A stretch of 64,000 nt of DNA from Patescibacteria group bacterium (GTDB lineage Bacteria > Patescibacteriota > Patescibacteriia > UBA11705 > DATKZF01), in NCBI GenBank assembly GCA_049319825.1, contig JBMORT010000006.1, forward strand, positions 235,641-299,640, written 5' to 3'. The position numbers and the translations under genes were made by a program. Shown here one piece after another: positions 19,794-42,571 of this stretch (position 1 is its first letter; each line of letters starts with the position of its first letter). The notes beneath the pieces were generated by a model that did no database searches, was not told the origin of the DNA, and was given only the letters and a program-made list of their open reading frames with translations.

Positions 19794-20099
19794 AGTTTTA
19801 AAATAAGTTTAAGACAAAATAGCAAATATAAAAATTATGGTGTCCCTCGCGCGACATTTTTTTTTTGAAGTAATACATTTGGGCGGTAGGCCAGAGGCGA
19901 TGGTCCGGACTTAATTATATTACCACCGCCCGTGTTTAAAATCGCCTATTTCCCCGATCGTCCTTTTTCTTGATTTCAACGTTCGACCAATCGGCAGTCT
20001 AAATCCGTGTGGATAAATCCTTGAAATATTATCAAAAAGTAATATACTGCAATTAGTAATAGTAATAAGTTGTAAATAGGAATGATTATCTATTAAATT

Positions 20100-22165: not shown

Positions 22166-22342
22166 TCGTATTGATAAAAAACAATAAATTTATAATTTTG
22201 TCAAGGTGCCTGGTTCTTGATTTTTTCCCCCTTTTCCGCTATAATAATTGAATAATTTTAATATCACATGAGTATTTACTTTCGCATCAAAATATCTTAC
22301 CATTAATGCTGTAACGTTTTTATTAATTTGGCGACCTCTACA

Positions 22343-22897
22343 ATGAATAAGAACAAATTTACAATCAAATATCTTGTTTATCAGACTAGAAACCAAAAAG
22401 ATCCGGAAAGCTTTGCCAGGCTTTACGATATGTATGTGGATCAAATTTTCCGCTTTGTTCGCTTTAAGGTGGAGACGGAAGAAATCGCTCAGGATATCAC
22501 CTCAGATATTTTTTTAAGAACTTGGCAATATCTTTTGGAAAGTTCAAGGCCAATTGATAACTTCAACGCGTTGATATACCGAATTTGCCGGAACTGCGTT
22601 GTCGATCATTATCGGAAAAGAAGTCGGGAAGCGCAGGTTTATAACGCGGAAAATTTTGAGCAGCTGATACATGACCGCCAGGATATAACCGAGGATATAG
22701 ATAATAAAATCGATTTTGGTCAGATCGAAGAAAAGCTGAAACTGCTTAAGGAGGAATACCGGGAAGTGATCATCTTGCGATACGTGGAAGGATTAACCGT
22801 AAGCGAGATTTCCAAAATATTGGATAAAACAAAAAGCAATGTCAGGGTGCTGATACACCGCGCGTTAAAAACATTAAAAGACATCATTCATGACTGA
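22343..22897 (+). CDS. ECF-type sigma-70 family RNA polymerase sigma factor
   Basis: Region 2: FARLYDMYVDQIFRFVRFKV...DITSDIFLRTWQ. Region 4: REVIILRYVEGLTVSEISKILDKTKSNVRVLIHRALKTLK. Confidence 0.75.
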   Translation: MNKNKFTIKYLVYQTRNQKDPESFARLYDMYVDQIFRFVRFKVETEEIAQDITSDIFLRTWQYLLESSRPIDNFNALIYRICRNCVVDHYRKRSREAQVYNAENFEQLIHDRQDITEDIDNKIDFGQIEEKLKLLKEEYREVIILRYVEGLTVSEISKILDKTKSNVRVLIHRALKTLKDIIHD

Positions 22898-24128
22898 AGC
22901 AGATTTAATCAAACAGCTGAAGGGCTTAAGCGGCATGGGCGCCAGCAGTGATTGGAAAACAGCTAATCGCCATCTTTTGATTTCACAGATTTCTGGGCAG
23001 TCGGTTAATCGCCAGCCAGCGTCGTTTGATAAAAAGGTTTGGTATGGTTTTCGCGCGATGATGCCCACCAGCCTGAAGAATTTCATTCTCAAGCCGATTG
23101 GAGCGATCTCTTTAATGTTGGCCATAATCATGGGAGCTTCCGTGGTTTCGGTCAGCGCGTCGCGAGGCAGCGTTCCCGGTGACCTATTATATAAAGTAAA
23201 ATTGACTTCGGAAAAAATCCAGGCCGGACTGACGGTGAATGATGAAAAGAAAACCGATCTTTACATAAATTTTGCCGGCGAGCGGCTCCACGAAATGGAT
23301 AAGATCAAAGATGCCGGACAGGCGGAAAAGAAATCGGAAAATATAAAAATTGCCTTGGATGGCTTCACTAAGCAAATGAACACGGTCAAAACGCATATTG
23401 AGAAAGTTAGTGAAAAGCCAAAGCCGGCTCAGGATATCGTAGTGGTCGCTAAGAAAGTTGATGATAAGGTCGTGGAATTTACAGATAGAATAGATCAGAA
23501 AAAAGCGGAGATGCTCGATTTTGCCCAAAAAGATTTAGTCCGCGAATTGGATAACGCCAAAGAGGCGGTTGAAGAGGCGTCAGACGTAGCCATCGAGGTG
23601 ATTATCGAAAAGCATGTAAAGGGGGAGGCCGAAATTCCGGTGGAAGAGTTGGCCGGTAAACTCGAGCAAAAAATTAAGCGAGCCGAGGAAAAAATTATTA
23701 AAACTCAAGAAGAAGTTGAATATTTAAAGGACATTAATTCCGGCGATACTGAAGCTGAAATAAAAAATCCAGCCGGAGAGCAGTCGGTTGATTCGGCGAC
23801 GGCTGATCAAGTGGCGTCCATCGATCAGGTGGCCATGCCAGAACCGACAACAACCAAACCGATTGATTTACTGAATCAAGTTGAAGATAAACCAAAGGAA
23901 GCGCAGCAGCTGGTAGAACAAGCGAAAGAATTACTGTTATCGGGCGATTTGTCCAGCGCATTTAGCCGCATTATCGAAAGCAAACAGATTACCCGTCAAA
24001 TCGAAGAAACAATCAATACCGTTTCCGGCGATGGCGCGTCTGCCGAACCAAGCATGAAAGCCGACAGTTTGCCGGCCGGCACCGCGTCGAGCGCGCCAGC
24101 CAGCGGCGACGCAACAACAATAGATTAA
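22890..24128 (+). CDS. putative anti-sigma factor-like membrane protein (single TM, long coiled-coil extracytoplasmic region)
   Basis: Start overlaps the sigma-factor stop (ATGACTGA), suggesting translational coupling. Short cytoplasmic N-term, then TM IGAISLMLAIIMGASVVSVSA, then K/E-rich coiled coil. Confidence 0.45.
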   Translation: MTEADLIKQLKGLSGMGASSDWKTANRHLLISQISGQSVNRQPASFDKKVWYGFRAMMPTSLKNFILKPIGAISLMLAIIMGASVVSVSASRGSVPGDLLYKVKLTSEKIQAGLTVNDEKKTDLYINFAGERLHEMDKIKDAGQAEKKSENIKIALDGFTKQMNTVKTHIEKVSEKPKPAQDIVVVAKKVDDKVVEFTDRIDQKKAEMLDFAQKDLVRELDNAKEAVEEASDVAIEVIIEKHVKGEAEIPVEELAGKLEQKIKRAEEKIIKTQEEVEYLKDINSGDTEAEIKNPAGEQSVDSATADQVASIDQVAMPEPTTTKPIDLLNQVEDKPKEAQQLVEQAKELLLSGDLSSAFSRIIESKQITRQIEETINTVSGDGASAEPSMKADSLPAGTASSAPASGDATTID

Positions 24129-28040: not shown

Positions 28041-28182
28041 ATTAATTAGGCAGTGGGCAGAAGGAAATAGGCAAGAGTAATGCATCGATTGCTGCATACC
28101 TGCCCTCTGCCCGCCGCCTTTCGTTTTTTCTTTTAATTTGGTTTATGCTATAATATTATCAGCCAATCATAACTTCGCGTAT

Positions 28183-29823
28183 ATGAAAAAATTTTTCATT
28201 TTTCTTTTCATTTTACTTTTTATAATGGCTGGAGGGTTCACCCGAGCAGCGGAAATGGCTGATTATGTCAACATTGGCGCGCCAGCAGGGAGTTTTTTCA
28301 ATTCCGATTTTGACGTTTTGGTCATGGATATTGAAATACCCGATAACTCCGGACAGAGCGACATGCTCGAAGCGATTACCGTAAAAAACAACGGCAGCGC
28401 GCAAGCGTTGCGCAATATCGAAAAAGTGGCGATTTGGGTTGATGCCGGTCCGGTTGGGTTTGACGGTATGGGAGTCGATGAGTTTTTGGGATACGCGGCG
28501 CAAGATGGATACAGCATTTGGTATTTATCCGATATTTATCGTGGCGTTCCGGTCGGCGGGTTGCGTGTTTTCGTGTCGATTGAAACCGCTTACAGTTTTT
28601 CAACCACGACCACTACGCAGTTTTCCGTGCCGGCGCTTTTTGATGAAAATGGCAATGGCCGTTTTGATTACGGCGATACCGGTATATTCGTATCATCGGA
28701 AAACGATGGTCCGACCGACGAAGCCATTGTGAATTCGGCTTCACAAGAACTTCACAAATTGTCTTTTGATTATTTATCGCCAAAAGCGGTTATAGATAAT
28801 TTGAGCGATGGCGACTCCATATCCATTTCTTCCGGTGAGGTAACGATCACCGGACAGGCGCGCGATCGCGGCGGATCGTACCCGGCCGCCGTGTCAATTG
28901 GTATTAATGGTCAATGGTTTGAGGTGGAGAATACCGGAACATATTTTTCCGCTTGGCAATATCAATGGTTTGACTTTGGAACGCAGTCGAGCCACGAGAT
29001 TATCGTCCGCGCCACTGATTTTATAGGCAATCAGTTTGTTTCCGCGCCGATTAATGTGACGGTTGTGGGCACGGGCGATTTTACGTATGAAAATTCGATC
29101 ATCGAAACAGCCGTTTCTTCGGCCGATATCGATCAGACGGTTGATGTCACCGTTCATGTAATCGACAGCTATGGCGAACCGGTTTCCGGCGTTCAAGTCG
29201 ATTTGTTTTCATCAAAGGCTGGATATGATCAAATAACGGCCATTAATAATATCACCGATTCTGATGGTCAAGCTTTTTTCGCCATCACTTCCGGTTTGCC
29301 GGGCACGACTTTGTTTTACGCCATGATCGGCGACCAGTTGCTTGAATGGAATATCGGCGGACAATCAATTCCGGTCTCGACGGTGCTGACCATCAGCAGC
29401 GGCGCGGAATTGGCCGGCCGGCTGGTGAAGTCCACGGAATTGTCAACCGTTTATTTGCTTGATGAAGACAATATCCGCCATGCTTTTCCCAATGAAAATA
29501 TTTATCGGTCATGGTTTGACGATTTCAGCCGGGTGGAAGTGCTTTCGGCTCAGGAAATCGCCGCTTATCCGCTTTCCAGCAACGTAAAATACAAACCGGG
29601 CAGTATGATAAAAATGCCGTCGGTGCCGCGAGTGTACATGGTTGATCAAGATCATAATTTGCGCTGGCTGGAAAATCAAAATATCGCCTTCATGCTTTTC
29701 AGTTCAAAGTGGGCATCACGTATCGATGATATGTCCGAGGCATTTTTCAGCGATTATCGGGAAGGGGAGACGATTCTCGAAGCGAATATGTCGATTGAGG
29801 TGTTCAGGAGTTTGTTGCCCTAA
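28183..29823 (+). CDS. secreted protein with bacterial Ig-like (Big) domain and C-terminal shared ~120-aa surface domain
   Basis: Signal peptide MKKFFIFLFILLFIMAGGFTRAAE. Big-like VDVTVHVIDSYGEPVSGVQVDLFSS...DSDGQAFFAITSG. C-term TVYLLDEDNIRHAFPNENIYRSWFDDFSRVEV...RVYMVDQDHNLRWLENQ. Confidence 0.55.
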   Translation: MKKFFIFLFILLFIMAGGFTRAAEMADYVNIGAPAGSFFNSDFDVLVMDIEIPDNSGQSDMLEAITVKNNGSAQALRNIEKVAIWVDAGPVGFDGMGVDEFLGYAAQDGYSIWYLSDIYRGVPVGGLRVFVSIETAYSFSTTTTTQFSVPALFDENGNGRFDYGDTGIFVSSENDGPTDEAIVNSASQELHKLSFDYLSPKAVIDNLSDGDSISISSGEVTITGQARDRGGSYPAAVSIGINGQWFEVENTGTYFSAWQYQWFDFGTQSSHEIIVRATDFIGNQFVSAPINVTVVGTGDFTYENSIIETAVSSADIDQTVDVTVHVIDSYGEPVSGVQVDLFSSKAGYDQITAINNITDSDGQAFFAITSGLPGTTLFYAMIGDQLLEWNIGGQSIPVSTVLTISSGAELAGRLVKSTELSTVYLLDEDNIRHAFPNENIYRSWFDDFSRVEVLSAQEIAAYPLSSNVKYKPGSMIKMPSVPRVYMVDQDHNLRWLENQNIAFMLFSSKWASRIDDMSEAFFSDYREGETILEANMSIEVFRSLLP

Positions 29824-29983
29824 GGAGTTAGAGTTACCGTTTGTGGATAAGTTATAAAAAATAATTATTTTAGCTGTATAATGTCAGCAGAAAGAACTAT
29901 AAAATTTATATAAAATTTAGGGCATCTAATTTTGCTCGAATTTAATTATTATTAAAAAAATTTTGCATTTTTTAAAAAAAATT

Positions 29984-32900
29984 ATGAAAAAGCGAAATAA
30001 CACATTATCTTTGGTGTCAAAGATAATCAGCATCGCCTCCATTTGCGGACTGTTGGCTGTGCCGTATTTGGCCGATGCTTCCAACTTCGCCGATTTCGGC
30101 GGACCGGGCGCTCCGGCCATCACTGTCGGCCCGAGTTCTACCAATGTTGTGACTATGGCCGTTACCATTCCGGATGCCTGGAATGGCGGCGCGTTCACCG
30201 CGGATATTGCTAAAAAAGCGGGCGCCAATTCATTTTGGCAAGGAGACTCTTTGAATTCTATCCCGGCATTGGGGACGACATCCGGCGTCGGTTATAAAGA
30301 AGATGGCACCGGCGGCTTTCAGGGCACAGAGCCGGTAGTCCGTGATTTGGACGCGGATAGCGCATATACTTCAGCCGCCGACACCACTATCGCCGGTGTG
30401 CCGCCAGCCGCGGGCACGACCATCACCACCACCAAAGACGCGGACTGGACTTCAGTTTATTTTTACGATGCTGTTGGCGGCGGCGCCTGGAGTGCCGCGG
30501 CTGACTTGATTTTCAATGACGACGGCAATGTTTACTATGATATCGGACCCGATACTCTTGAAGCCGGCACCGGCGCGGAAAATACTTTAGGCACGCTGAC
30601 CGAGCCGGCAAACTGGGGGCTGTACTATTATGACGCGGTAAACGGCAATGTTTATAACGGCGGCCTAGACTGGATCGGTCGAGATGACGATGCCGATCAG
30701 GTTTACACTTCGGCCGCGGACGTAATCTACATTGATCAGGCAGATTTACCTCTTGCGGGCAATACATATTATGACGTAGTCGCCGCCGATCAAGTGTGCT
30801 CGGATAACAGCGATTTGGCCGCGGCTTCCTGCGTCTATACGGATTCGGGCGGCGATTGCGACGCTACCGACGGCGATACCCACACTTATTATATGGGAGC
30901 GGCTTGCGGCACCGCGACCGATACCTTAATCGTCACCGGCGACAACTGGATGACCACTGATGATACCATTGATAACACTACCGATTTTATTAAAGAAAAT
31001 GTCGCCGAAGAACTGACCTATTCCGCGGCCGCGGACGCCACCATTGACGGCGTGGCGCCGGTCGCGGGGACAGCCATAGTGAACGCCAAGGATGCTGATT
31101 GGACATTGCTTTATTTTTATGACGCGGTGGCCGGCGGCGGCTGGAATGCCGGCACAGACTTGATTTTTAATGACAGCGGATTTGTGTATTATGATATCGG
31201 CCTTGATACTTATATCGCTGGCAATTCGGTGGAAAATCAGCTTGGCAATATCAATGAGCCGGCAAATTGGAATTTGTTTTACTATGACGCCGTTAATCTT
31301 GACGCTTGGAATAACGCCGCTGACTGGTTGGGAACCGATGACGGCGGATCCGGAACTTTCTCCACCAGCGCGGATGTCGATGTTTATAGCACCGGCGGTT
31401 TATCGAACGCCGACGCGCTGGCGAATTTCGCCGCTGATTGCGATGGCGGCGGTGCGGGCACCCAAGCTTGCGCTTATACCGGCAGCGCTCCGATAGACGC
31501 GGGTGATTCGATTTTGGTGGATCAGGGAACGGCCGCTGGCGCGGCGCCGAACGCGGTCGTTGACAAGCAAGCTGACCAGTTGATCGGTATCGGGGTCACC
31601 AACGCGCTGGGCAACGCCGTTAATCCAACTGATATCGGTAGCGTGTATATTTTCAGAGACGGACCGTCCGCCGGCTGGACCGGTGATGAGGTATTATTGG
31701 GTGCGATGACGCGTCATTCTGTCAATCAAAACGAATGGCGGCTCGATATATCGGCAACGCCTCAAGCGGTGAGCGCCGGCGGCTTATCGATATTCGTCAC
31801 CGCCGACATAACCGCCACTCCCACCCATGGACGAACTTTGCAGTTCGCCATCCCGATATATAACGATACGGGCGCAGACAATATCGCCAATTCAGACGGT
31901 GATTTGGGAGTCTTTATGTCTTCAAATAACGACGGTCCGCTCGATGCGGGCATTGCCAATGGCGCGGCCCAGACAATAGACGCGCTACCGCCGACGCTTC
32001 AGAGCTTTACTTCAACTACGGTCGATGGCACTTACGGACCCGGTTCAAACATCAATGTCACCGCCACTTACAATGAAAATATTGCCGGCGGCAGTTTGAT
32101 GACGGTTACTTTGGATAATGGCGTCAATGTGACTTTGAATAATATCGTGGGCTCGACCATTTCCGGAACCTACACGGTTGGCGTTACCGGCAGCGGCGAA
32201 GATTCGGCCGATTTGACCGTAGCCAGCATTCTTTCGGAAAGCGTGGCCGATTCTTATGGAAACATTCAAGGAAGTTCAGCTGTTCCCGGCTCTCCGAACA
32301 ATATAGCCGACACGAGTGCGATCGTTATTGATACCACCGCTCCGACGATTACCGAGGTGACGCCGGTGCCGACCCCCACCAATAATCAGAATCCTTCCTA
32401 TACTTTAAATACCGATGAAGCGATCGGGTTGTCTTGGGCCGGCGGTTGCGACAGTGTCACCGGTGCTGTCGGCACCGGCAATCAAACGGTAACCCTTGAC
32501 GCCGACGGCGCCGGCGCTGTGTTGCCAGCAGCAACTTATAATTGCACCTTGACCGGCACTGATGGCGCGGGCAATGCTGGAAATTTGATTATGTCCGCTT
32601 TTACTGTGGATATTACCGCTCCTTCCATAACCGCCGCTCAGCTGGAGGACACCGATAATGACGGGTATGCCGACCGAATCGGCTTAACGTGGGATGAGGC
32701 ATTGTTTGATACCGCATCGGCGGCTAACGGCTTTGATGTGACTTCCGCATCTGATCATGGTTCGTGCGTCGGCGAATCGGCTGATCCGGACGGCACGAAT
32801 TCAGTGGATGTTGATTTTACTTGTTCAATTCCTTATACCGATGTTGGGGATATGAATTTGTCATTGACTCAAAATGCCGGGGTTCGAGACGCGGCCGGCA

Positions 32901-34216
32901 ATCAATCGCTTACGACCGTGCTGACTGCCATTTCAGCGCCGGCGATTATTGACGCGGCGGATCCGGTGATTTTAACAACGTCACCGGCCAATTCGGCCAG
33001 CGGCGTGGGCATTGCCCAAGATGTGGTGGTAACATTTAGTGAGCCCATGAATACCGGTACCGTGACCCAGACTTCAGTTCCTGATCCCACCGGCTGGTCC
33101 GTCGTTTGGACCTCGGGCAATACGGTGGCCACTTACAGCCATGCAGTAAACTTCAATTCCAGCACAGCCTATACCGAGCAAATTACCGCCGGACAAGATA
33201 CCAACGGACGAAATTTGGCTGCCGGACCGGTGGCCAATCCTTGGACGTTTACGACCGGAGCTCCCAGTGGTGGCGGTGGCGGTGGTACTGTTTCTCCGAT
33301 AAATTATTCCCTCTTGATTAATAATGGCAGCGCACAAACTAATTCATCAATCGTGACCTTAAAGTTATCGGCAGAAAACGCCGCCTATATGTTGATTTCA
33401 GAAGATCCTGATTTTACCGATGCCAATTGGCAAGCATACGCGACGACCAAGACATTTACGCTCAGCAGCGGTTACGGCACCAAGAACGTATACGCCAAAT
33501 TCAAATCTTCAACCAATAATCAGTCAAGCCGAGTTTCGGATTCAATACAATACGTGGAAACAATAACGGAGGAACCGGTAGAGGAACCGACACCCGAGCC
33601 TTCGGAGGGTGAATATCCTTCCGGATTGGTTGCCGGAGATTTGGTTAAAACCTCTGATTCTTCGTCTGTTTATGTGCTTGGCGCCGATTCCAAGCGGCAT
33701 GCTTTCCCCAATGAGGACGTATATTTCAGCTGGTACGCAGACTTTTCACAGGTTAAAGTCATTTCCAGCAGCGTATTGGCTTCGATTCCTTTGGGTAAAA
33801 ACGCAACCATGCGCCCGGGCACTTGGCTGATAAAGGTGAAATCATTGCCGAATGTTTACGCGGTTGAGCCGGGCGGAGTGATCCGTTGGATTGAAAATCA
33901 GGGGCTGGCAGAAGAGTTGTACGGCAGCACTTGGAACGAAATGATCAAAGATGTCAGTGACGCTTTCTGGTCAAATTACACTCCGAATGGCAGTATCAGC
34001 GAAGTTATTCATCCCACCGGCGCGGTTATTCAGTATAATGGCCAAACCGCCATATATTTCATCGAAAACGGCGCTACTCGGTATTTGACGGCAGACGCCT
34101 TTGCCGCCGGGGGGTTCAGGCATATGTTCACGATAAAGAATGTTTCCGGCTCGATCAGTTATCCGGCTGGTGGAGATTATGCTGTCAGCAGCACGATCAA
34201 GATCATGGGATTATAG
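29984..34216 (+). CDS. giant secreted surface protein (about 1410 aa) with a ~215-aa internal tandem duplication, Ig-like domains, and C-terminal shared domain
   Basis: Signal peptide; repeats beginning D-x-D-S-x-YTSAAD. SbsA/Big-like segment DPVILTTSPANSASGVGIAQDVVVTFSEPM. G-rich linker GGGGGG. C-term SVYVLGADSKRHAFPNEDVYFSWYADF. Start could be 29963. Confidence 0.6.
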   Translation: MKKRNNTLSLVSKIISIASICGLLAVPYLADASNFADFGGPGAPAITVGPSSTNVVTMAVTIPDAWNGGAFTADIAKKAGANSFWQGDSLNSIPALGTTSGVGYKEDGTGGFQGTEPVVRDLDADSAYTSAADTTIAGVPPAAGTTITTTKDADWTSVYFYDAVGGGAWSAAADLIFNDDGNVYYDIGPDTLEAGTGAENTLGTLTEPANWGLYYYDAVNGNVYNGGLDWIGRDDDADQVYTSAADVIYIDQADLPLAGNTYYDVVAADQVCSDNSDLAAASCVYTDSGGDCDATDGDTHTYYMGAACGTATDTLIVTGDNWMTTDDTIDNTTDFIKENVAEELTYSAAADATIDGVAPVAGTAIVNAKDADWTLLYFYDAVAGGGWNAGTDLIFNDSGFVYYDIGLDTYIAGNSVENQLGNINEPANWNLFYYDAVNLDAWNNAADWLGTDDGGSGTFSTSADVDVYSTGGLSNADALANFAADCDGGGAGTQACAYTGSAPIDAGDSILVDQGTAAGAAPNAVVDKQADQLIGIGVTNALGNAVNPTDIGSVYIFRDGPSAGWTGDEVLLGAMTRHSVNQNEWRLDISATPQAVSAGGLSIFVTADITATPTHGRTLQFAIPIYNDTGADNIANSDGDLGVFMSSNNDGPLDAGIANGAAQTIDALPPTLQSFTSTTVDGTYGPGSNINVTATYNENIAGGSLMTVTLDNGVNVTLNNIVGSTISGTYTVGVTGSGEDSADLTVASILSESVADSYGNIQGSSAVPGSPNNIADTSAIVIDTTAPTITEVTPVPTPTNNQNPSYTLNTDEAIGLSWAGGCDSVTGAVGTGNQTVTLDADGAGAVLPAATYNCTLTGTDGAGNAGNLIMSAFTVDITAPSITAAQLEDTDNDGYADRIGLTWDEALFDTASAANGFDVTSASDHGSCVGESADPDGTNSVDVDFTCSIPYTDVGDMNLSLTQNAGVRDAAGNQSLTTVLTAISAPAIIDAADPVILTTSPANSASGVGIAQDVVVTFSEPMNTGTVTQTSVPDPTGWSVVWTSGNTVATYSHAVNFNSSTAYTEQITAGQDTNGRNLAAGPVANPWTFTTGAPSGGGGGGTVSPINYSLLINNGSAQTNSSIVTLKLSAENAAYMLISEDPDFTDANWQAYATTKTFTLSSGYGTKNVYAKFKSSTNNQSSRVSDSIQYVETITEEPVEEPTPEPSEGEYPSGLVAGDLVKTSDSSSVYVLGADSKRHAFPNEDVYFSWYADFSQVKVISSSVLASIPLGKNATMRPGTWLIKVKSLPNVYAVEPGGVIRWIENQGLAEELYGSTWNEMIKDVSDAFWSNYTPNGSISEVIHPTGAVIQYNGQTAIYFIENGATRYLTADAFAAGGFRHMFTIKNVSGSISYPAGGDYAVSSTIKIMGL

Positions 34217-34335
34217 AGTTAATATAATAAAAAAGGGCTTTGGCGAGTCCTTTTTTATTTCAAGTTTTGTGGATAAATTGTTTACAATTATTGAAAATAA
34301 TTGTATAATAATAAATGATTTTTTAAAAAAAATAT

Positions 34336-36756
34336 ATGAAATTGAAAATTTTCTCAATGTTTTTAATTTGTTTTGTCGTCGTTGGTGCTTGCGCCGTTTT
34401 CAGCGTGATGCCAGCGACCGCGACAACCGCTGATTTTTTCGAAGTACGATTTGATTCAACAACATTAATGAACAATGATTGGATTTATGTTAAATTCAAT
34501 CAGCATGTTTGGGGAGCTGGGGGAGTGTCATTAAAGCCAAGCGATTTTATCTACACCGATGGCAATGGCGCGGGCATGAGCGCGATCAAATCCGTCGTCG
34601 TTCATAATCCCGGTGACGATTACGCCATATTGGAAATGAATGCCGCCGCTGTCGCTGGAGACACGGCCGATACATTAGAAGCTGATTTTGGCAAAATCTG
34701 GACAGTATCCGGCGGAGCATTGCCCGGCAAAACTCCAGTATCCTTAGTTGACAATAACGGAGCGGGCCCCACTTTATATGCCTATACTGGAACCGGAGCC
34801 GGCGCGGTCGCTCAAATCGGAGCGAGTAATATGATGGTTGAGTTTATGAGCACAACTCTCGGTGCCGGCGGTAACGCATTGCCTACGCCGATATTCTCCT
34901 CGGCTATTTTTCCGCCATATATTGGGCCGTTAAACTCATCCAATTTTACATATACCAATAATGGGGGCGGCGGGGTCGGACAAGGCATCTCTTCGATCAT
35001 TCATTTTAATTTTGGTGACAGCCGTGTTTACCTGAAAATGAATTTAGCGGTTACCGGTGAAATTGGCACTGATTCACTAGATTGCAACGCAACTGCTTTT
35101 GATATGTGGGGAAATCCCTGCGTCGCCACGCCACCGGCGCTGATTCAGGCGGATGGTGGAGCGCCAACGCTGAGCACCGTTGAAACAACGGAAGGGGTCG
35201 GAACCGGGGAGATGGTCTTTATTGATCCGGCGAGAAATGCGCCCGAGCCGATTTTTGGCAACGCTGGCTTTTCCATGCCAATAACCGCAGCGGAGTTAAC
35301 TTATAAAGATAACAATCCAGGCGGTGCCACCTCATTGATCAGTGTCACCCATGCCGTTGGCAATGATTACGCGATCATGAATTTCGACAGATTCGTCGCC
35401 TCAACCGATTTTTCGGTGGATAATATCAGTTCAACCATCACTCCAGGCGTGGATTTATTCAATAATTCAATAATTGGTTCTGCCGTGCTGGCCGACACGA
35501 TCGATCCGGTGATTATCAGTTATTCACCAACAGATAACGCCACCAACGTGTCGATTGATTCACCGTTAGTTGTCGATTTCAGCGAACCGATCAACACCGG
35601 ATCATTAACCGGCACGATTTCGCCTGATCCTGGTAATTGGGTTAACAATTGGAGCAATGGCGACAAAAGAGTCAGCATGACGCATGATCAATATCTTTAT
35701 TTCACACAGTACGTGATTACCAACGGCACAGTTGATGATACCGCCGGTAACTCCATGGGCGGATTTAACGGCTGGGATTTTACCACCAGCAAACGTTCTT
35801 CTGGCGGTTCACTTTACCCAACCAATTATTCGCTTAGAATTAATAATGATGATGTCACCACGAACTCTTTGAACGTATCCCTGGACATTAATGCGGAGAA
35901 TGCCGATAAAATGATGATTTCCAATTATTCGAATTTCATTGATTCCGATTGGGAGGATTTTGACACCGGTAAACTCTGGACGTTGCTTGAAGGCGCCGGC
36001 ACTAAGACCGTCTATATGTTATTCAAAAATTTGAATGGCAATCAATCGATTGTTGTTTCGGATACCATTGAATACGCCGCAGCTGATGACGCGACCACAT
36101 CGAATGTCGATGATGAATCGGATCAAGCCGAGCCAGCCGAGACAATAATGTTTCCTGATGGATTAACGGCGGGAGAATTGGTAAAAGTGATGAACACCTC
36201 GGCTGTTTATTTGCTCGGAGCGGATGGCGATAGACACGCATTTCCCAATGAAGATGTGTACATGAGTTGGTTTGATGATTTTTCCTCGGTAAAAGTGGTT
36301 TCCAACAGCACCCTGGCAAAGATCGCTTTGGGAAAAAATATTACCATGCGTCCGGGAACATGGTTGATAAAAATTAAATCATTGCCAAATGTGTATGCGG
36401 TTGAACCCGGTGGTTTGATTGAATGGATTGAATCGGAGGATTTAGCCGAAGATTTATACGGCAGCGGCTGGAATATAAGGATTAAGGATTTAAGCGATGC
36501 GTTTTGGCCCGATTACAAAAAGAACGGATCAATTACCGATCCGGTCCATCCCTGCGGCACATTGATTCGATACGCGGGAGAAAACAATGTTTATTACATA
36601 GATGCGGACGCTAAGCGATTTATTTCACCGTCGATATTCCAGGCCAATGGATTCAAAGAATCATTCATCGTCGATAATGTGCCCAGCTCGTTTGTGTATT
36701 CGGCCGGCGATGATTTGTCTATCAGCGGCATGACCGCCATGATGTTTGCTCAATAA
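34336..36756 (+). CDS. secreted surface protein (806 aa), paralog of the preceding protein over its C-terminal ~450 aa
   Basis: Signal peptide MKLKIFSMFLICFVVVGACAVFSVMPATA. Shares the DPVIISYSPTDNATNVSIDSPLVVDFSEPIN Ig-like domain, the ...YPTNYSLRINN... domain, and the C-term AVYLLGADGDRHAFPNEDVYMSWFDDF domain. Paralog nucleotide identity ~80% over 36.18-36.5 kb vs 33.65-34.0 kb. Confidence 0.6.
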   Translation: MKLKIFSMFLICFVVVGACAVFSVMPATATTADFFEVRFDSTTLMNNDWIYVKFNQHVWGAGGVSLKPSDFIYTDGNGAGMSAIKSVVVHNPGDDYAILEMNAAAVAGDTADTLEADFGKIWTVSGGALPGKTPVSLVDNNGAGPTLYAYTGTGAGAVAQIGASNMMVEFMSTTLGAGGNALPTPIFSSAIFPPYIGPLNSSNFTYTNNGGGGVGQGISSIIHFNFGDSRVYLKMNLAVTGEIGTDSLDCNATAFDMWGNPCVATPPALIQADGGAPTLSTVETTEGVGTGEMVFIDPARNAPEPIFGNAGFSMPITAAELTYKDNNPGGATSLISVTHAVGNDYAIMNFDRFVASTDFSVDNISSTITPGVDLFNNSIIGSAVLADTIDPVIISYSPTDNATNVSIDSPLVVDFSEPINTGSLTGTISPDPGNWVNNWSNGDKRVSMTHDQYLYFTQYVITNGTVDDTAGNSMGGFNGWDFTTSKRSSGGSLYPTNYSLRINNDDVTTNSLNVSLDINAENADKMMISNYSNFIDSDWEDFDTGKLWTLLEGAGTKTVYMLFKNLNGNQSIVVSDTIEYAAADDATTSNVDDESDQAEPAETIMFPDGLTAGELVKVMNTSAVYLLGADGDRHAFPNEDVYMSWFDDFSSVKVVSNSTLAKIALGKNITMRPGTWLIKIKSLPNVYAVEPGGLIEWIESEDLAEDLYGSGWNIRIKDLSDAFWPDYKKNGSITDPVHPCGTLIRYAGENNVYYIDADAKRFISPSIFQANGFKESFIVDNVPSSFVYSAGDDLSISGMTAMMFAQ

Positions 36757-36884: not shown

Positions 36885-37439
36885 ATGGATTATTCCAATC
36901 TTGACGACATCAGTATTGTCGAAATCACAATAAAAAACGATAAAAATGCTTTTGCGGTGCTAATTTCCAGATATCAGGGTAAATTGTTTTCCTATATTTT
37001 AAGGTTGATAAATCATCGCGAGGAGTCTGCGGATGTTCTGCAAGAGGTGTTTTTAAAGGCTTACAAAAGTTTAAAAAGTTTTAATTCCAAAAAAAGTTTT
37101 TCCAGCTGGATATATCGAATCGCTCACAATGAATCGGTCAATTGGCTGAAAAAAAACACCAAATATAAAAAGCAATCGCTTGATGATGAAAACAATCCAA
37201 TTGACGTGTCGGACAGTCATGATCTTTCGGCGGCGTCAATAATCAACGAAGAAAGGGTTGAATTGATTAAATCGCTGGCTAAATTGCCAATCAAATATAA
37301 GGAAGTGCTGGTGTTGCGGTTTGTTGAGGAAAAATCATATGAAGAAATTTCTCAAATTATCAGCAAGTCGGTCAATGCCGTCGGCATTATGATCAATCGC
37401 GCGAAAAAAATGTTGGCGGAAATTCATAAAATTGATTAA
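36885..37439 (+). CDS. ECF-type sigma-70 family sigma factor
   Basis: Region 2 LISRYQGKLFSYILRLINHREESADVLQEVFLKAYKSL...FSSWIYRIAHNESVNWLKK. Region 4 YKEVLVLRFVEEKSYEEISQIISKSVNAVGIMINRAKKMLAE. Confidence 0.75.
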   Translation: MDYSNLDDISIVEITIKNDKNAFAVLISRYQGKLFSYILRLINHREESADVLQEVFLKAYKSLKSFNSKKSFSSWIYRIAHNESVNWLKKNTKYKKQSLDDENNPIDVSDSHDLSAASIINEERVELIKSLAKLPIKYKEVLVLRFVEEKSYEEISQIISKSVNAVGIMINRAKKMLAEIHKID

Positions 37440-37447
37440 ATGCAAGT

Positions 37448-38389
37448 ATGAACAATTGGGAAAAAAAATTAGGCGGTTTGCGACAGGATTTTAACGTTGA
37501 GGTTCAAGCTCGGGTAATGGAAAAAATAAGCAATGTTAAAATGACGCCGAAAATATATTTTCAATCAAAAAAGACATTGATGATTTTATTGTTTTTGTCG
37601 TTATTATTAGCTGTCGTGTTTATAATCAATTTGGCTTTATACGATGTTCAGCAAAGCGCCAGCTATGAATACATTAATTTTGGCGCATCCGGTATCGGCG
37701 TCTTTTTGCGCAATTTGCCTTATCTGCTACTGTTTAGCATGCTTGTTTTTCTGGCATTGTCCATCTGGATGATGTCCAAGTTTGAATTGTCTTATAAAAA
37801 ATATTTCGCTGTTTTCATTGTAGTTATCGTGGCCGGAACATCCATGGGCGGCACCGCGCTGTTTGCCTCCGGTTTCAACGATCAAATGCGAAATAAAGTT
37901 GATAATCAGGAATTGACAATGCCGCTGGTGCGGCCGGTCGCCCGTAAGCTTTATAATACATACGGACCGAGAATGATCGATCGCAGCTTGGTCGGCAGGG
38001 TCGCGGTGCCGCCCGGAGAATCGAGGGAAATGCTGGTGATAACGCCTCAGGGACAGCAGGTGACGGTGAAAATACAAAAAAATTGTAAAATAGTATCGGC
38101 GCAAGGAACAGTCGCTTCCGGCGACATGTTGATTATAATGGGTGAGCCGGTCGTTAATTTTCATGCCAGCGGCATTAAAGTTATCGAAGATCAGCGGCGC
38201 GCCATCGATATGATGAAAACGCTCAGCCGCCGGCAGCTGATGGTAAAATTCAGGAAACCAGAACCGCTCAACGACGCGATTGAGTTCCCTTTTGATCCGG
38301 AAAAAAAGATTAAATTTATGGAAAACATGGGCGGAGTGCTGCAATCGGGCAGCCAGGTTAAGACGGCGAATATTATTTGGGGCGATTGA
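37448..38389 (+). CDS. membrane protein downstream of the ECF sigma (possible anti-sigma factor)
   Basis: Short cytoplasmic N-term, then at least 3 predicted TM segments, then a ~180-aa extracytoplasmic domain. Position immediately 3' of the sigma gene with an 8-nt gap. Confidence 0.35.
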   Translation: MNNWEKKLGGLRQDFNVEVQARVMEKISNVKMTPKIYFQSKKTLMILLFLSLLLAVVFIINLALYDVQQSASYEYINFGASGIGVFLRNLPYLLLFSMLVFLALSIWMMSKFELSYKKYFAVFIVVIVAGTSMGGTALFASGFNDQMRNKVDNQELTMPLVRPVARKLYNTYGPRMIDRSLVGRVAVPPGESREMLVITPQGQQVTVKIQKNCKIVSAQGTVASGDMLIIMGEPVVNFHASGIKVIEDQRRAIDMMKTLSRRQLMVKFRKPEPLNDAIEFPFDPEKKIKFMENMGGVLQSGSQVKTANIIWGD

Positions 38390-38502
38390 AATAAAAGAAA
38401 AAGCGATATTTAGGCAGTGGGCGAGTGATACGTTATAATTGCCTGCTGCCTTTTATTTTTAATTTTTCATTTTTCCTTGGTAATTAATAAATTTGTCCAC
38501 AG

Positions 38503-38522
38503 CTGTCGAGCGCGCTCGACAG
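38503..38522. repeat. 20-bp perfect GC-rich palindrome
   Basis: ctgtcgagcgcgctcgacag. A partial third arm (cgcgacagc) follows at 38527-38537. Confidence 0.7.
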
Positions 38523-38643
38523 AAATCGCGACAGCTTGATTTGATCTTGTGAAAACTGCTGATATAAAGCGGTTTTTTGTTCGCTTTGCCCGACAAAAAA
38601 GTCTATTCAAATCTGTTCAAACAAGAGACAATATGGGTGAGGG

Positions 38644-38694
38644 GTTCCCGAAGAAGCGCGCGAAATATTTCGCACTCAAGCGCTTCTCGGGAAC
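38644..38694. repeat. nested hairpin: 15-16-bp inverted arms enclosing a 14-bp perfect palindrome
   Basis: gttcccgaagaagcgc [gcgaaatatttcgc] actcaa gcgcttctcgggaac. Confidence 0.7.
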
Positions 38695-38867
38695 AAAATC
38701 AAGAGCCAAGATCAATAATGATGGCTAGAAATTGATGAAGGCAACGCTATATCCCCAAGCAAAGGTAAAGATACCAAGCCGAAATAAAGATCATACCAAC
38801 AAATTCGCGTTTTCTATCTGTAAACATTGCCTGCGCAGGCATACATTAAAAAATAACTAAAACTTTT

Positions 38868-39449
38868 ATGCAAAAATTCATTGAACGACAAGCCGGCGGC
38901 ACTTACTTTTATTCCAGCACCGTGGCCGGCAAAAAAAACTTATTCGTCAGCCAAGTTTATCTTGATTTGATGATTAAAAATATCAAGGAGGTGGCCAAAG
39001 AGATGAACGTTAAAAACCTGGGGTATTTGATAATGCCAAATCATTTTTACTGGCTGTTTAAGCTGCCCAAAGAACAAGATAATCCCGTGAAAGTTTACGG
39101 TGAACTGAAAAAAAGAGTATCTTTTCAGATTCTGGACCAACTTCGCGCCGAAGCCAAGGTCGATGAAAAACAGCCGATGGTCAAGCTGTTCGATACGAAC
39201 GAGCGCGTTAGCCGCTCTCACGCTAGAAGAATCATTTGGTTTTTTAAGGAAGAGGCGAAAAAGCTTGAAAACGGAAAAAAAATGAAAATGTGGGAAACTG
39301 ATTCAAAATTGAATTTGGTCAAAGACGAGGAGTCTTTGGGTAGAGCGATTGAGGTATTGAAAAGCGGGCCGATCAAAGATCGATGGCAATTGGTGGAAAA
39401 ATCGGAAGATTATCCTTATTTGTTTTTATCGCCAAAGCCGTGTGTTTGA
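38868..39449 (+). CDS. IS200/IS605-like (RAYT/Y1 HuH transposase-like) protein with a degenerate HuH motif; probably inactive or domesticated
   Basis: LGYLIMPNHFYWLFKLP aligns to the canonical (h)AYxLMPNHVHLLh motif of Y1/RAYT proteins, but H-V-H is replaced by H-F-Y. C-terminal SEDYPYLFLS resembles the RAYT C-terminal EDYPWSS motif. Flanked on both sides by GC-rich palindromes. Confidence 0.45.
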   Translation: MQKFIERQAGGTYFYSSTVAGKKNLFVSQVYLDLMIKNIKEVAKEMNVKNLGYLIMPNHFYWLFKLPKEQDNPVKVYGELKKRVSFQILDQLRAEAKVDEKQPMVKLFDTNERVSRSHARRIIWFFKEEAKKLENGKKMKMWETDSKLNLVKDEESLGRAIEVLKSGPIKDRWQLVEKSEDYPYLFLSPKPCV

Positions 39450-39454
39450 GCGCT

Positions 39455-39600
39455 GACGGGCAAAACCTACTGGCCGGCCCTACCTGGCCAATAAGATTGC
39501 TCGTCGTTCGCAGGCAATTTTAATAAAAGCTCGGCGGGCCGGCCTTTGGGAGACGGACGGCCCGTCGAGACAAAGTATTATAAAGAATATACATTTTTAA
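39455..39600. repeat. GC-rich palindrome-containing segment 3' of the RAYT-like gene
   Basis: ggccggcc, ctggcc direct repeat, cggcgggccggcc, gacggacggcccgtc. Local GC is much higher than the window average. Confidence 0.4.
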
Positions 39601-39623
39601 TCACTGATTCGTAAAAAATCGCA

Positions 39624-42341
39624 ATGAGTGATGAAAAAATGAAAAATAGGATTTGGCAATTAGGTCAATTCGAAATTAAATTTAAATATATGACATATGA
39701 TTTGAGAAAAGAACTACTCGTGCTGGCTTTAATCGGTTGCCTGCTGCTGATAAGTTCATTTTTTTTCATTCACCAGGCGCAGGCCGCAGATTTTTCCGTA
39801 GTTATCAGTGAGCTGGCCTGGGCCGGGTCGAGCTATTCGGCCAATGACGAATTCATTGAATTAAAAAATTTAACTGACCGGGAAATTGATTTAAGCGGCT
39901 GGAAATTAACCAAGCTTTCCGGCGGACAAGAGCAGGTAATGATCGAATTTCCGCCGGCAGCGATTATCGAATCAGAAAATTTTTTTGTGATATCTAATTT
40001 TGGCAGCGAAGATTCGGTTTTAAATATTGAACCGGACCTGGCAGATAGCGCGGTCAGTTTAAGCAATTCAAATCTGGAAATTAAATTATATGATTCAGCC
40101 GGCATATTAATCGATGTCGCCGGAGACGGCAGCGCGCCGTTTTACGGTGATAACGAATTTAAAGCTTCTATGGTCAGGAATTTTACTATTGGATCAGGTG
40201 AGATTGAATCATCCTGGTCAGGAAGCTTGATCTCGGAAAATTTGGATGCTGACGCCCCTGACTTCGCATCTCCGGCCGCGGAAAATTTTTTAGGAATTGA
40301 TATTATCCCGGCCGCTGACGATTTGACTGCTATCGAAGAGGAGAGCGTCGCTTCTGATGATGAAGTAATTATTGAAAATTTCGCCAGCGATGATGAGACG
40401 ATCAGTGAAGATATGGCCACACAAGACGCGTTGCCGGACATAATTGAAGACGCTGCCTCAGATGATCAGTCAGTGATTATCGAAGATGATACCGGCCAAG
40501 CGCCGCCAATAGCGGGCAAGCTGCTGATCAATGAAATCGCTTTTAAAGAAGATCAAGACTGGGTGGAACTGGCAGTGGCTGAGCAGGGAAATTTTAAGGG
40601 CTGGAAAATATTTCAAGGCGAAAGCTTGATTTCAGAGATAAATCAGGACTCAGTTTATCCACAGGGTAGTTTTATTTTAATAAATTTAGATAAAAATTTG
40701 ACCGGAACTGACAATGTCATAGTCGTGCGAAATGAAAATTATGAAATCGAAGATACGGCGCTTTGGAGCAATCATGATGGCAAATTTACCAAATCAAAGG
40801 CTTTCGCAGTGTACTTGGTCGAAACCGAACAATGGCTGACAAAAAATGATTTTGAAAAAAATGACGAAGTTTCCTGGATCAGCAGCGATGAGCTGAAAGC
40901 GGGCATGAGCTTGGCGCGAGTTTCGGATATTGATACCAATTCCGGCAATGACTGGATTATTACCGCCAAGCAAACGCCCGGACAGGAAAACGAGATTTGT
41001 TTTGCGTCATCGACTGATCCAGTCTCAGATGATCTGAATTCAGCTTCTGATGCATCGAGTGAGGATCTTGATGAAGCAGTATTGCCAATCGATGAGCCAG
41101 TGCCGGTCGATGTGGTCGGAAAGATAGTCATTAATGAAGTTTTAAGCCAGCCTGAAAGCGGGCAGCCGGAATGGGTCGAGATTTACAATTTGTCTGCCGC
41201 GGAGATTGAGGTGACTGATTTTTATCTGCAAGAGGGAAGCGGAACCAAATTTAAACTTAAGGGCAAATTGCCCGCGAAAAAATATATGGTGGTCAACGTT
41301 AAAAATTTAAATAATGCCGGCGACCTGTTGCAGCTGCATACCGGCGATGGTCAATTGCTCGATCAGATGGTTTATGGTTCTTTGGATAACACTCAAATTG
41401 ACTTTGATTTTCAAAAGATCGTATTGCCATATGCGTTAATACGCGACCGCAGCGGATTTTGGAAGCTGACGACATTGCCGACTCCGGGCAGTGAAAATAT
41501 TTTTCAAGAAATGATTGAAGAAAAAGAATCCCAAGTTAGCGGCGTGAAAGCGGTGTCGGTTCAAGCGACATCTTCGTCGAAGAAGACTGCTCAGACGGTG
41601 GCGCAGCCTATCGTTTTAACCCGAGGCAATGTTGATTCGCTTGAAGATGATGACTTGGTTTATTTCGCAGGCACAGTGACGGTCACTCCGGGATTGTTTC
41701 TGAAGCAAAGAATGTACGCTCAAAATGAAGATATCGGCGTGGAAATATATTTTAACAGAGCGGATTGGCCGAATTTGAAAATCGGCCAGCAAATCCGAGT
41801 CAGCGGCAAATTCGCGGCCAAGGATTTGCCTCAAATAAAAATTTATTCAACCGACGATATTCAGGTTTTGGGGAGTGGCGAAGCTGAGCTAAAGGAATTT
41901 AAGCTGGCCGACCAGGAAAATTTAATCGGATTTTTAACCGCCGGCGACGGAGAAGTATCTGAAAAATTGGCCGGAGGATTTAATCTGGTGACCGCCGAAG
42001 GCGATGTGCCGGTTTGCTTTAGGCAAAACGCCAAGCTGGATACCGGTCAGATTGAAAACGGCCAGCGCATATTTGTCAGCGGAATTTTATTGCCATATAA
42101 AGACAGCGTCTGTTTATATCCCAGAATCGATGAGGATATGTCGATTTTGCCGTCCGCGGCAGAGCTGGCCGCTCCGATCAGCGAATCCGTGCCGCTAGGC
42201 GGAAATTTGCCCGCGAAGTCCATTTTGACAGTCGCCGCCGGGGTTTTAGCCGGTGGTTTGGGGGTGATTACATTAATAAAAAAATTAAAATCTTTAAAAA
42301 AGATTTCCCCCCTATGGCCGGGCGTCGGCAACACCAAATGA
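39624..42341 (+). CDS. lamin tail domain (LTD)-containing surface protein with three LTD copies, acidic linker regions and a C-terminal TM anchor
   Basis: LTD signatures VVISELAWAGSSYSANDEFIELKNLTDREIDLSGWKL; KLLINEIAFKEDQDWVELAV...FKGWKI; KIVINEVLSQPESGQPEWVEIYNLSAAEIEVTDFYL. Signal peptide. C-term ILTVAAGVLAGGLGVITLIKKLK. Start may be M at 39690. Confidence 0.6.
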   Translation: MSDEKMKNRIWQLGQFEIKFKYMTYDLRKELLVLALIGCLLLISSFFFIHQAQAADFSVVISELAWAGSSYSANDEFIELKNLTDREIDLSGWKLTKLSGGQEQVMIEFPPAAIIESENFFVISNFGSEDSVLNIEPDLADSAVSLSNSNLEIKLYDSAGILIDVAGDGSAPFYGDNEFKASMVRNFTIGSGEIESSWSGSLISENLDADAPDFASPAAENFLGIDIIPAADDLTAIEEESVASDDEVIIENFASDDETISEDMATQDALPDIIEDAASDDQSVIIEDDTGQAPPIAGKLLINEIAFKEDQDWVELAVAEQGNFKGWKIFQGESLISEINQDSVYPQGSFILINLDKNLTGTDNVIVVRNENYEIEDTALWSNHDGKFTKSKAFAVYLVETEQWLTKNDFEKNDEVSWISSDELKAGMSLARVSDIDTNSGNDWIITAKQTPGQENEICFASSTDPVSDDLNSASDASSEDLDEAVLPIDEPVPVDVVGKIVINEVLSQPESGQPEWVEIYNLSAAEIEVTDFYLQEGSGTKFKLKGKLPAKKYMVVNVKNLNNAGDLLQLHTGDGQLLDQMVYGSLDNTQIDFDFQKIVLPYALIRDRSGFWKLTTLPTPGSENIFQEMIEEKESQVSGVKAVSVQATSSSKKTAQTVAQPIVLTRGNVDSLEDDDLVYFAGTVTVTPGLFLKQRMYAQNEDIGVEIYFNRADWPNLKIGQQIRVSGKFAAKDLPQIKIYSTDDIQVLGSGEAELKEFKLADQENLIGFLTAGDGEVSEKLAGGFNLVTAEGDVPVCFRQNAKLDTGQIENGQRIFVSGILLPYKDSVCLYPRIDEDMSILPSAAELAAPISESVPLGGNLPAKSILTVAAGVLAGGLGVITLIKKLKSLKKISPLWPGVGNTK

Positions 42342-42571
42342 TCGGTCATCAATGGGCATTAATTTTTTGCAGATATTATAATGTCGTGCTGTTGATAACT
42401 CGCAAAGATCGCTTCGGCAGAGGCGATTTTTGTGTTATAATTAGAATAACTAGGATTGCGCCTAGAATTTATTAAGATTTAAAAAATCTGAAAATTTTTC
42501 TGAATAAAATTGTTCAAAAAGCCAAGGCGCTATTATTTTCGGTTAAACAAAATAAAGCGCGGTCGTTCACC

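Follow-up and report, generated by a model that had tools for sequence, protein, structure and literature searches.

A RAYT-like protein predicted to be non-catalytic, kept between surface-protein genes and beside single-copy hairpins in Patescibacteria

RAYTs are the textbook 'domesticated' bacterial transposases and, to our knowledge, those that have been described keep their catalytic residues and their repetitive extragenic palindromic (REP) partners. The RAYT-like gene at 38868–39449 (+ strand) of a 64,000-nucleotide stretch of a Patescibacteria group bacterium (assembly GCA_049319825.1, contig JBMORT010000006.1, positions 235,641 to 299,640, hereafter the window) raises the question of what such a gene does when its product departs from the catalytic motifs and it is nevertheless bordered by strong hairpins. 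A sequence-only reading of this DNA had related the 193-amino acid product to Y1 HuH transposases and RAYTs, and had proposed that the palindromes around the gene are cognate REP-like elements or, alternatively, that the gene is domesticated and the hairpins are terminators or regulatory RNA structures. The second of these proposals fits the data best. The explanation that we favor, with moderate confidence, is that the protein is an exapted, catalytically dead descendant of the class-2 Y1 HuH proteins (RAYT/TnpA_REP) that was fixed between a Big_5 and a lamin-tail-domain (LTD) surface-protein gene, and that it probably binds its own flanking RNA.

The relationship to the RAYTs was apparent in both sequence and structure comparisons. 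The NCBIfam hidden Markov model REP_Tyr_transpos (NF047646) matched the window protein over its full length with a significant E-value (1.6e-17), although the score lies under the curated cut-off (63.8 versus 80 bits), as does the score against Pfam Y1_Tnp (PF01797; 18 versus 23 bits). A profile built from 26 homologues matched E. coli TnpA_REP (Protein Data Bank entry 4er8) with an E-value of 2.4e-7. The AlphaFold model of the 193-amino acid protein (pLDDT 87, pTM 0.84) has the Y1 HuH fold (an alpha/beta fold unrelated to RNase H) of TnpA_REP and TnpA_IS200; its best match in a Foldseek search of the Protein Data Bank was 4er8_A (E 6.8e-8, TM 0.70), followed by the TnpA proteins of IS200, IS608 and ISDra2. 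The motifs GGTYF(F/Y), MPNH, NP...W and DYPY, as well as W142, the Trp of 'WQ/WE', are common to the window protein and to 4ER8 and the class-2 proteins. An identical sequence has been annotated as a hypothetical protein in a metagenome-assembled genome of the Patescibacteria group. Among the class-2 TnpA_Y1 proteins classified by Quentin et al. 2018 (PMC6006769), the nearest are those of subclasses 2.4 and 2.6, characterized by the motifs NH[LIV]H, WQ, YIHxNP and SS, and the insert between alphaC and beta4 is like that of subclasses 2.2 and 2.6. This insert had been described earlier as long and acidic. Its length, about 50 amino acids, was confirmed, but it is net basic (14 K/R versus 9 D/E in residues 88–141), and so is the whole protein (pI 9.5, net charge +10). 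The same insert is present in catalytically intact sister proteins, and in 4er8 the alphaC–beta4 region adjoins the surface that recognizes the REP hairpin (PMC6006769).

The window protein lacks the His-hydrophobic-His metal-binding motif: in HMMER and MAFFT alignments H59-F60-Y61 stands opposite H59-M60-H61 of 4er8, so that the second metal-binding His is indeed a Tyr, as had been noticed from the sequence. The catalytic Tyr, which had been overlooked, is lost too. The motif Y-[IV]-x-x-N-P has no Tyr in the window protein, where V163, within 'EVLKSGP', lies opposite the catalytic Y115 of 4er8 (YIYINP; motif YIxxNP). The loss of both residues predicts that the protein has no activity in the cleavage or strand transfer of single-stranded DNA hairpins. 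By descent, then, these alignments identify a RAYT/Y1 HuH transposase that is predicted to be non-catalytic, which agrees with the earlier suggestion of a non-catalytic or re-purposed derivative. The substitutions are a property of a whole family, which consists of a small group of Patescibacteria (Falkowbacteria and relatives) whose proteins share 38–82% identity; when 1.84 billion representatives were searched exhaustively with a profile, 16 proteins fell below an E-value of 1e-30 and 591 below 1e-3. Across 26 family members the position of the second His is occupied by Y, L, M, C or F, with H in one member, and that of the Tyr by V, I, L, M, F or Y. The first His is lost as well in P0026 (Y-F-Y) and in locus L073 (N-F-F-F). 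The nearest outgroups (P0035, P0037, P0041, P0045 and P0047) keep both NH[LIF]H and Y[IVT]xxNP, and the loss of the catalytic residues is therefore derived. One of them, P0037, clears the NCBIfam RAYT cut-off of 80 bits with 89.7 bits (63.8 for the window protein).

Missing catalytic residues and scores under the family cut-offs are also what would be seen in a decaying relic, that is, a pseudogenized remnant of an IS200 or RAYT that no longer has a function and still carries its old end hairpins. We consider this scarcely credible. About 30 loci have an uninterrupted reading frame, and 27 residues do not vary within the family. Neither frequent frameshifts or stop codons in the orthologues nor a dN/dS near 1 was seen; instead, dN/dS was 0.02–0.13 where it could be computed, with synonymous sites saturated within the dead family (pS 0.7–0.9) and pN of 0.11–0.22. 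The family of dead RAYTs is under strong purifying selection. Decay is also contradicted by the confident structural model, by a gene order that stays fixed over 38–82% protein identity, and by flanking noncoding blocks that are conserved with covariation.

That gene order is common to about 25 non-redundant loci. It begins with a large Big_5 surface protein, whose C-terminal domain is a shared one, and continues with the RAYT-like protein, the LTD surface protein and an 801-amino acid protein. A pair of genes for a sigma factor of the extracytoplasmic function (ECF) type and its anti-sigma factor separates the Big_5 gene from the RAYT-like gene in the close subgroup only. The LTD gene (39624–42341, + strand; Pfam LTD) is the invariant downstream neighbor in all loci. 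The RAYT-like gene is single-copy in the window, as it is in every locus, and, judging from its position in the relatives, appears to be immobile and vertically inherited. An IS200/IS605 insertion sequence was considered and rejected, given the single copy in the window and the same genomic position in about 25 loci. There is no TnpB or IscB partner adjacent to the gene.

The finding that the hairpins border a RAYT-like gene leads to the possibility that the locus is an active REPtron, in which a working RAYT mobilizes the flanking palindromes as cognate REP/REPIN elements. In addition to the fold and the sequence homology, its genetic arrangement speaks for it, since single-copy, vertically inherited genes with flanking hairpins are typical of RAYTs (PMC6006769). 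The E. coli TnpA_REP gene shares with the window gene its single-copy chromosomal location and its hairpin flanks. Furthermore, the nearest intact relatives show exactly this layout. These are the metagenomic sister RAYTs P0037 and P0041 (206 amino acids, the same length class, 26–31% identical to the window protein), which have the alphaC–beta4 insert and the H-x-H-W and DYPY signatures but, unlike the window protein, keep HuH and Tyr and have one palindrome family on both sides; their gene neighborhood also differs. Locus L101, which encodes P0037, carries six copies of one palindrome family distributed on both flanks, and locus L102, which encodes P0041, carries one copy on each side, an arrangement that, from its sequence, corresponds to the classic REPtron with the flanking REP/REPIN feature. 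The palindrome family of L101 is CGTATCTGCAGGGTTGAACCCTGCAG and its inverse, at 1306–1420 and 2069–2204, and that of L102 is TCCCGCAGAGGCT..GCCTCTGCGGGA, at 296–325 and 968–997. Both REPtrons lie in seemingly related AT-rich genomes, and the C-terminal residues of the product encoded upstream in L101 look RadA-like by eye.

The hairpins of the window behaved differently. Those on the left have no relationship to those on the right, while the intact nearest relatives carry one family on both flanks. Two covariance models, R1 for the upstream hairpin D and R2 for the downstream elements E1 and E2 (all described below), each matched a single site per locus; the rest of the 64-kb window and of the 474 kb of related loci gave no match. 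Pattern searches with exact matching and with three mismatches, together with a repeat scan, also detected no further copies of the palindromes in the window or the loci. At gathering thresholds, the only matches of Rfam 15 in the window were tRNAs; a permissive search of 38300–39700 gave chance-level matches only, the best with an E-value of 0.29 and all far under gathering scores. The protein thus differs from TnpA_REP in its H-F-Y, in the Val that replaces the Tyr, in scores under both curated cut-offs, in the lack of a REP family both on its flanks and in the rest of the searched DNA, and in being fixed in a surface-protein gene cluster. Mobilization of the hairpins is further opposed by the fact that neither catalytic position is conserved in the family and by the 47 G.U pairs of the downstream structure, which follow the sense strand of the gene. 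Taken together, the homology to Y1 transposases stands, with a significant match to the family model, and the REP part of the original proposal fails, the palindromes being unique in the DNA searched. We consider an active REPtron most improbable and the idea largely refuted.

If the hairpins are not REP elements, their conservation must be looked at element by element. The GC-rich palindromic tract pointed out downstream of the gene resolves into two strong structures. Element E1 (39451–39510, + strand, −24.9 kcal/mol) is composed of an 11-bp helix, P1, around a conserved internal loop (AAMCUAC / AUAAGA) and a hairpin, P2, with an invariant G.U pair. Element E2 (39530–39569, + strand, −28.5 kcal/mol) is a 15-bp GC-rich hairpin without a T-run. 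Across the alignment, 95.7% of the cells of the combined E1+E2 structure are paired and 22 of 33 pairs show compensatory changes: 15 of the 18 pairs of E1 (helices 1 and 2) and seven pairs of E2 (helix 3, 96% paired). These values were reached by none of 500 shuffles, and controls in which the structure was slid paired at no more than 42%. There were 47 G.U against one A.C combinations, which argues that E1+E2 is selected on the sense strand, most simply as RNA. In all 10 close loci E1 begins 2 nt past the stop codon of the RAYT-like gene, and the distance to the start of the LTD gene varies. The distant relatives have a single GC-rich hairpin at the position of E2, followed directly by the ribosome-binding site of the LTD gene; this leaves no room for a promoter and implies co-transcription. 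From this arrangement, the LTD gene is probably co-transcribed with the RAYT-like gene, and a canonical terminator with a T-run is found after the LTD gene near 42402–42436. A guide of the GTAG type known from REP recognition was also sought in E1. The reverse complement of its loop AACCTAC is GTAGGTT, but this column varies (CTRY) and is on the wrong side with respect to the hairpin, and the candidate was discarded.

In the upstream region, no open reading frame of 60 amino acids or more lies in 38400–38860, in agreement with the earlier statement that none covers it. In related loci a conserved block begins 4–17 nt past the stop codon of the anti-sigma-like gene; the window genome has in addition, compared with L001, L011 and L061, a hairpin followed by a T-run (38413–38460, + strand) that sequence and RNA folding identify as a probable intrinsic terminator of the upstream anti-sigma-like gene (37448–38389). 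The conserved block opens with a DnaA-box-like nonamer, TTGTCCACA in the window and TTATCCACAG in most relatives (38493–38501, + strand), which lies in invariant T-CCACAG-TGTC columns of eight loci and is better conserved than any other noncoding block of the locus; it is also found in the distant loci L007, L008, L009, L069 and L070. It is followed by hairpin A (38503–38522, + strand), the 20-bp perfect palindrome CTGTCGAGCGCGCTCGACAG that the sequence-only reading had recorded. This palindrome is unique in the window, with 0 chance matches in 100 shuffles, and among relatives its arms TGTCRA/TYGACA are conserved around a variable center. Hairpin B with its T-run (38551–38580, + strand) was recognized as a Rho-independent terminator by a terminator scan; its stem sequences differ among the eight loci and the pairing is kept through compensatory changes. 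Invariant columns continue in an inverted repeat of a T-run and an A-run that precedes the conserved block GACAAAAAAGTCTATT (38573–38607, + strand), which may occupy the position of an UP element or of a −35 region and for which distant loci have a block of the type GACAAAAATCG. The hexamer GACAAT (38627–38632, + strand) resembles a −10 element: the form xA[CT]AAT is present in all loci, with GACAATAT/GATAAT columns and equivalents in distant loci, and it is located 8–12 nt upstream of hairpin D, a location compatible with a putative promoter of the RAYT-like unit. A promoter that uses the TTGACA in hairpin A was rejected because its −10 candidates, compared by eye, are inconsistent between loci; likewise, the sequence GGGAAC in the 3′ arm of hairpin D suggested an ECF-sigma promoter, for which inspection by eye found no conserved −10 partner.

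Hairpin D itself (38641–38695, + strand) consists of GGGG and a long nested stem-loop at the predicted 5′ end of the transcript. The nested hairpin at 38644–38694 is as had been described, with GTTCCCGAAGAAGCGC (38644–38659) and GCGCTTCTCGGGAAC (38680–38694) around GCGAAATATTTCGC. The 60-nt segment that contains it folds at −30.8 kcal/mol, close to the 0.1 percentile of all 60-nt segments in the 64 kb (−31.1 kcal/mol). Hairpin D, which begins with GGAGGGGTTCC, is kept in nine loci with compensatory changes at five pairs. Thus, the order box TTATCCACAG-TGTC, hairpin A, terminator B, GACAAAAAAGTCTATT, GACAAT, hairpin D is common to eight loci, and these upstream blocks are conserved although synonymous sites are saturated. 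Distant loci have the same order (box, terminator, GACAAAAATCG, xA[CT]AAT, strong hairpin) with hairpins of unrelated sequence. Between hairpin D and the start codon, a variable spacer includes two 18-nt direct repeats (38755–38791, + strand) at the place where relatives have a four-helix-bundle cassette, and, about 30 nt before the ATG, the perfect 14-bp palindrome TGCCTGCGCAGGCA (38828–38841, + strand). A comparison by eye indicated that relatives have a perfect palindrome of another sequence at this site (TTGCAAGCTTGCAA, TTGTAAGCTTACAA, TTGTAGGCCTACAA and GCGATCGC). In locus L008 (~5870–5890) the spacer just upstream of the RAYT-like gene contains a run of 17 G, which may have arisen in the assembly or may be phase-variable.

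In IS200 of Salmonella, a terminator hairpin near the left end blocks incoming transcription, and a second stem-loop is found in the leader of tnpA. Terminator B followed by the 5′ hairpin D is an analogous layout, and the size of the unit, about 930 bp from D to E2, is similar. IS200 is multi-copy and mobile, with HuH and Tyr intact, whereas the unit in the window does not move, keeps its synteny and has no ends shared between copies. With this layout as a guide, the following pathway can be proposed. Terminator B would insulate the RAYT-like unit from upstream transcription, and the unit would be transcribed from its own promoter, starting just before D, which would then be a 5′-terminal stem-loop. 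The transcript would run through the coding sequence and through E1 and E2, which have no T-run, into the LTD gene. The basic protein would keep the RAYT surface for hairpin binding, with the alphaC–beta4 insert beside it, and would bind structured single-stranded nucleic acid without cutting it. The likeliest target would be its own flanking RNA, E1 and perhaps D, and binding might modulate the RAYT-like/LTD transcript at the level of stability, processing or read-through. A binder that does not cut is the most likely form of activity because RAYTs bind hairpins and this basic protein keeps the region beside the recognition surface. We favor the reading as a repurposed, non-catalytic and probably hairpin-binding protein inside a surface-protein operon.

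A serious rival, possible rather than probable in our estimation, is that the protein, domesticated for an unrelated role, has no interaction with the hairpins, which would be ordinary signals for gene expression: a terminator upstream, a 5′ stabilizer stem-loop and a 3′ or intercistronic stabilizer or attenuator, such as the intercistronic REPs of E. coli. The REP hairpins between malE and malF of E. coli act as mRNA stabilizers, and E2 and the hairpins of the distant loci are similar to them in being GC-rich hairpins without a T-run between co-oriented cistrons; they differ in that E1 and E2 are single-copy and lineage-specific and do not belong to a family of dispersed repeats. Ordinary signals would account for hairpin B, a canonical terminator, for D at the predicted 5′ end of the transcript, for E1/E2 directly behind the stop codon, and for the unrelated hairpins that distant members have in these places. 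Several observations weigh in the same direction and against RNA binding by the protein. Strong hairpins are not enriched beside the RAYT-like gene in comparison with other intergenic spacers of the same loci: the mean energy of the best hairpin was −21.9 kcal/mol in the other spacers, −24.7 kcal/mol downstream of the gene and −17.0 kcal/mol upstream. Because they are equally frequent elsewhere, the presence of hairpins alone is not special to this gene, and the flanking structures may be ordinary RNA stabilizers or attenuators independent of the protein. In hairpin D, G.U and A.C combinations number 6 and 4, which does not discriminate between the strands. E1 is confined to the close subgroup (62–82% identity), and distant members have a plain hairpin only, so that a specific partnership of the protein with E1 cannot be family-wide. 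Finally, the promoter, the transcription start and co-transcription are proposed from conservation, and a simple scan for the sigma-70 consensus did not call the proposed promoter. On the other hand, E1, with its conserved internal loop and invariant G.U, is over-elaborate for a stabilizer, proteins with the RAYT fold are hairpin binders by ancestry, and ordinary signals leave the conservation of TTATCCACAG-TGTC and GACAAAAAAGTCTATT unexplained.

A more specific form of the binding hypothesis goes from transposase to regulator: the dead RAYT would bind its own E1 (perhaps also D) as RNA or single-stranded DNA and control the LTD surface-protein operon, its flanks being preferred docking sites for cassettes. 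As a whole, this version is rather unlikely and is put forward tentatively. TldR proteins are TnpB-like, nuclease-dead repressors derived from transposons. The parallel, an analogy only, is that in both cases a protein of the IS200/IS605 family loses catalysis, turns into a fixed host gene and keeps nucleic-acid recognition; it ends at the starting protein (TnpA/RAYT instead of TnpB), at the guide RNA, of which none is known here, and at the regulatory role, which in the present case is deduced. If true, the regulator would be the TnpA-side counterpart of the TnpB-derived TldR repressors and would come with a new structured RNA motif.

The cassettes are genes of the PF05635/TIGR02436 family ('23S rRNA IVS protein', four-helix bundle), which were found in related loci in both spacers that flank the RAYT-like gene. 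The four-helix-bundle models gave 19 matches in 862 kb; 18 of them are no more than 300 nt away from the RAYT-like gene, in its orientation and on one or both of its sides, a count biased by the fact that the loci were fetched around that gene, mostly with 2–6 kb of flank. Each of these genes is bracketed by long inverted repeats. Examples are L011 5497–5883; L058 746–1126 and 1907–2356; L098 2528–2908 and 3671–4162; L100 237–641; L059 1103–1582 and 2329–2733; and L063 611–1138, among others. In L073 (3269–3568; also in L072 and L076) a small GIY-YIG gene occupies the cassette position of the upstream spacer, and in L073 it is followed by five to six tandem repeats of about 40 nt. This distribution suggested that the dead RAYT and its two spacers could be a dedicated landing or maintenance site for PF05635 and GIY-YIG cassettes, where the protein would bind hairpins of the cassettes or of the spacers and act as recruiter, partner or immunity factor. 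The proximity of 18 of the 19 inverted-repeat-flanked genes and the GIY-YIG gene in the same spacer of L073 are in its favor. However, the window and about 10 other loci have no cassette, and therefore the protein is kept without them; a degraded four-helix-bundle gene was sought in 38700–38860 of the window and tblastn returned noise only. Besides, the protein cannot, as predicted, catalyze strand transfer, the sampling was centered on the RAYT-like gene, and no literature link between PF05635 proteins and RAYTs was found. A landing site is accordingly very unlikely. Membership in a defense system was also rejected, as PADLOC gave no match for the RAYT-like protein, the four-helix-bundle proteins or the neighbors. 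Nonetheless, the locus is a reproducible genomic address for the poorly understood cassettes of PF05635 'IVS proteins'.

A large survey of the superfamily set aside sequences without the core motifs as probably non-functional (PMC6006769). The difference in the present case is that a whole clade has lost both motifs and yet is under strong purifying selection at one operon-like position over long evolutionary time. The existence of this dead clade under selection and of an active, REP-flanked sister group provides a clean natural test of a non-cutting Y1 HuH fold. The locus also contributes two candidates for structured RNAs without an Rfam entry.

Several minor observations concern the surroundings of the unit. 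The genome had been called AT-rich; the window is moderately so, with about 43% GC. Sites that match the DnaA-box consensus TTATCCACA with no more than one mismatch are enriched in the window (32 versus 14.6 expected), and six copies are exact. Three of the exact copies, on the − strand at 20008–20016, 29842–29850 and 34268–34276, lie in the spacers that precede a FUR-family gene and two genes for Big_5 surface proteins, close to these genes. The box may be a lineage-specific regulatory site. An origin of replication with a cluster of DnaA boxes at a GC-skew switch was rejected: there is one box at 38493, and throughout the 64 kb the skew stays positive and every gene lies on the + strand. Two genomes, L009 (~5590–5640) and L062, share the GC-rich palindrome core CCTGCCTGCCGGCAGGCAGG in spacers outside the RAYT-like unit, and other long perfect palindromes were seen upstream of the gene in L069 and L009; CCTGCCTGCCGGCAGGCAGG and similar sequences may be a separate family of small palindromic elements in the lineage. 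Two genes for ECF-type sigma factors, each followed by a gene for a putative anti-sigma or membrane protein, are located at 22328–24128 and 36885–38389; only in the close subgroup does the second pair immediately precede the RAYT-like unit. A 68-nt repeat at 29479–29546, 33698–33765 and 36235–36302 corresponds to the C-terminal domain shared by three consecutive large secreted proteins (28138–29823, 29963–34216 and 34336–36756), and in distant loci this domain is found at the end of the gene that precedes the RAYT-like unit.

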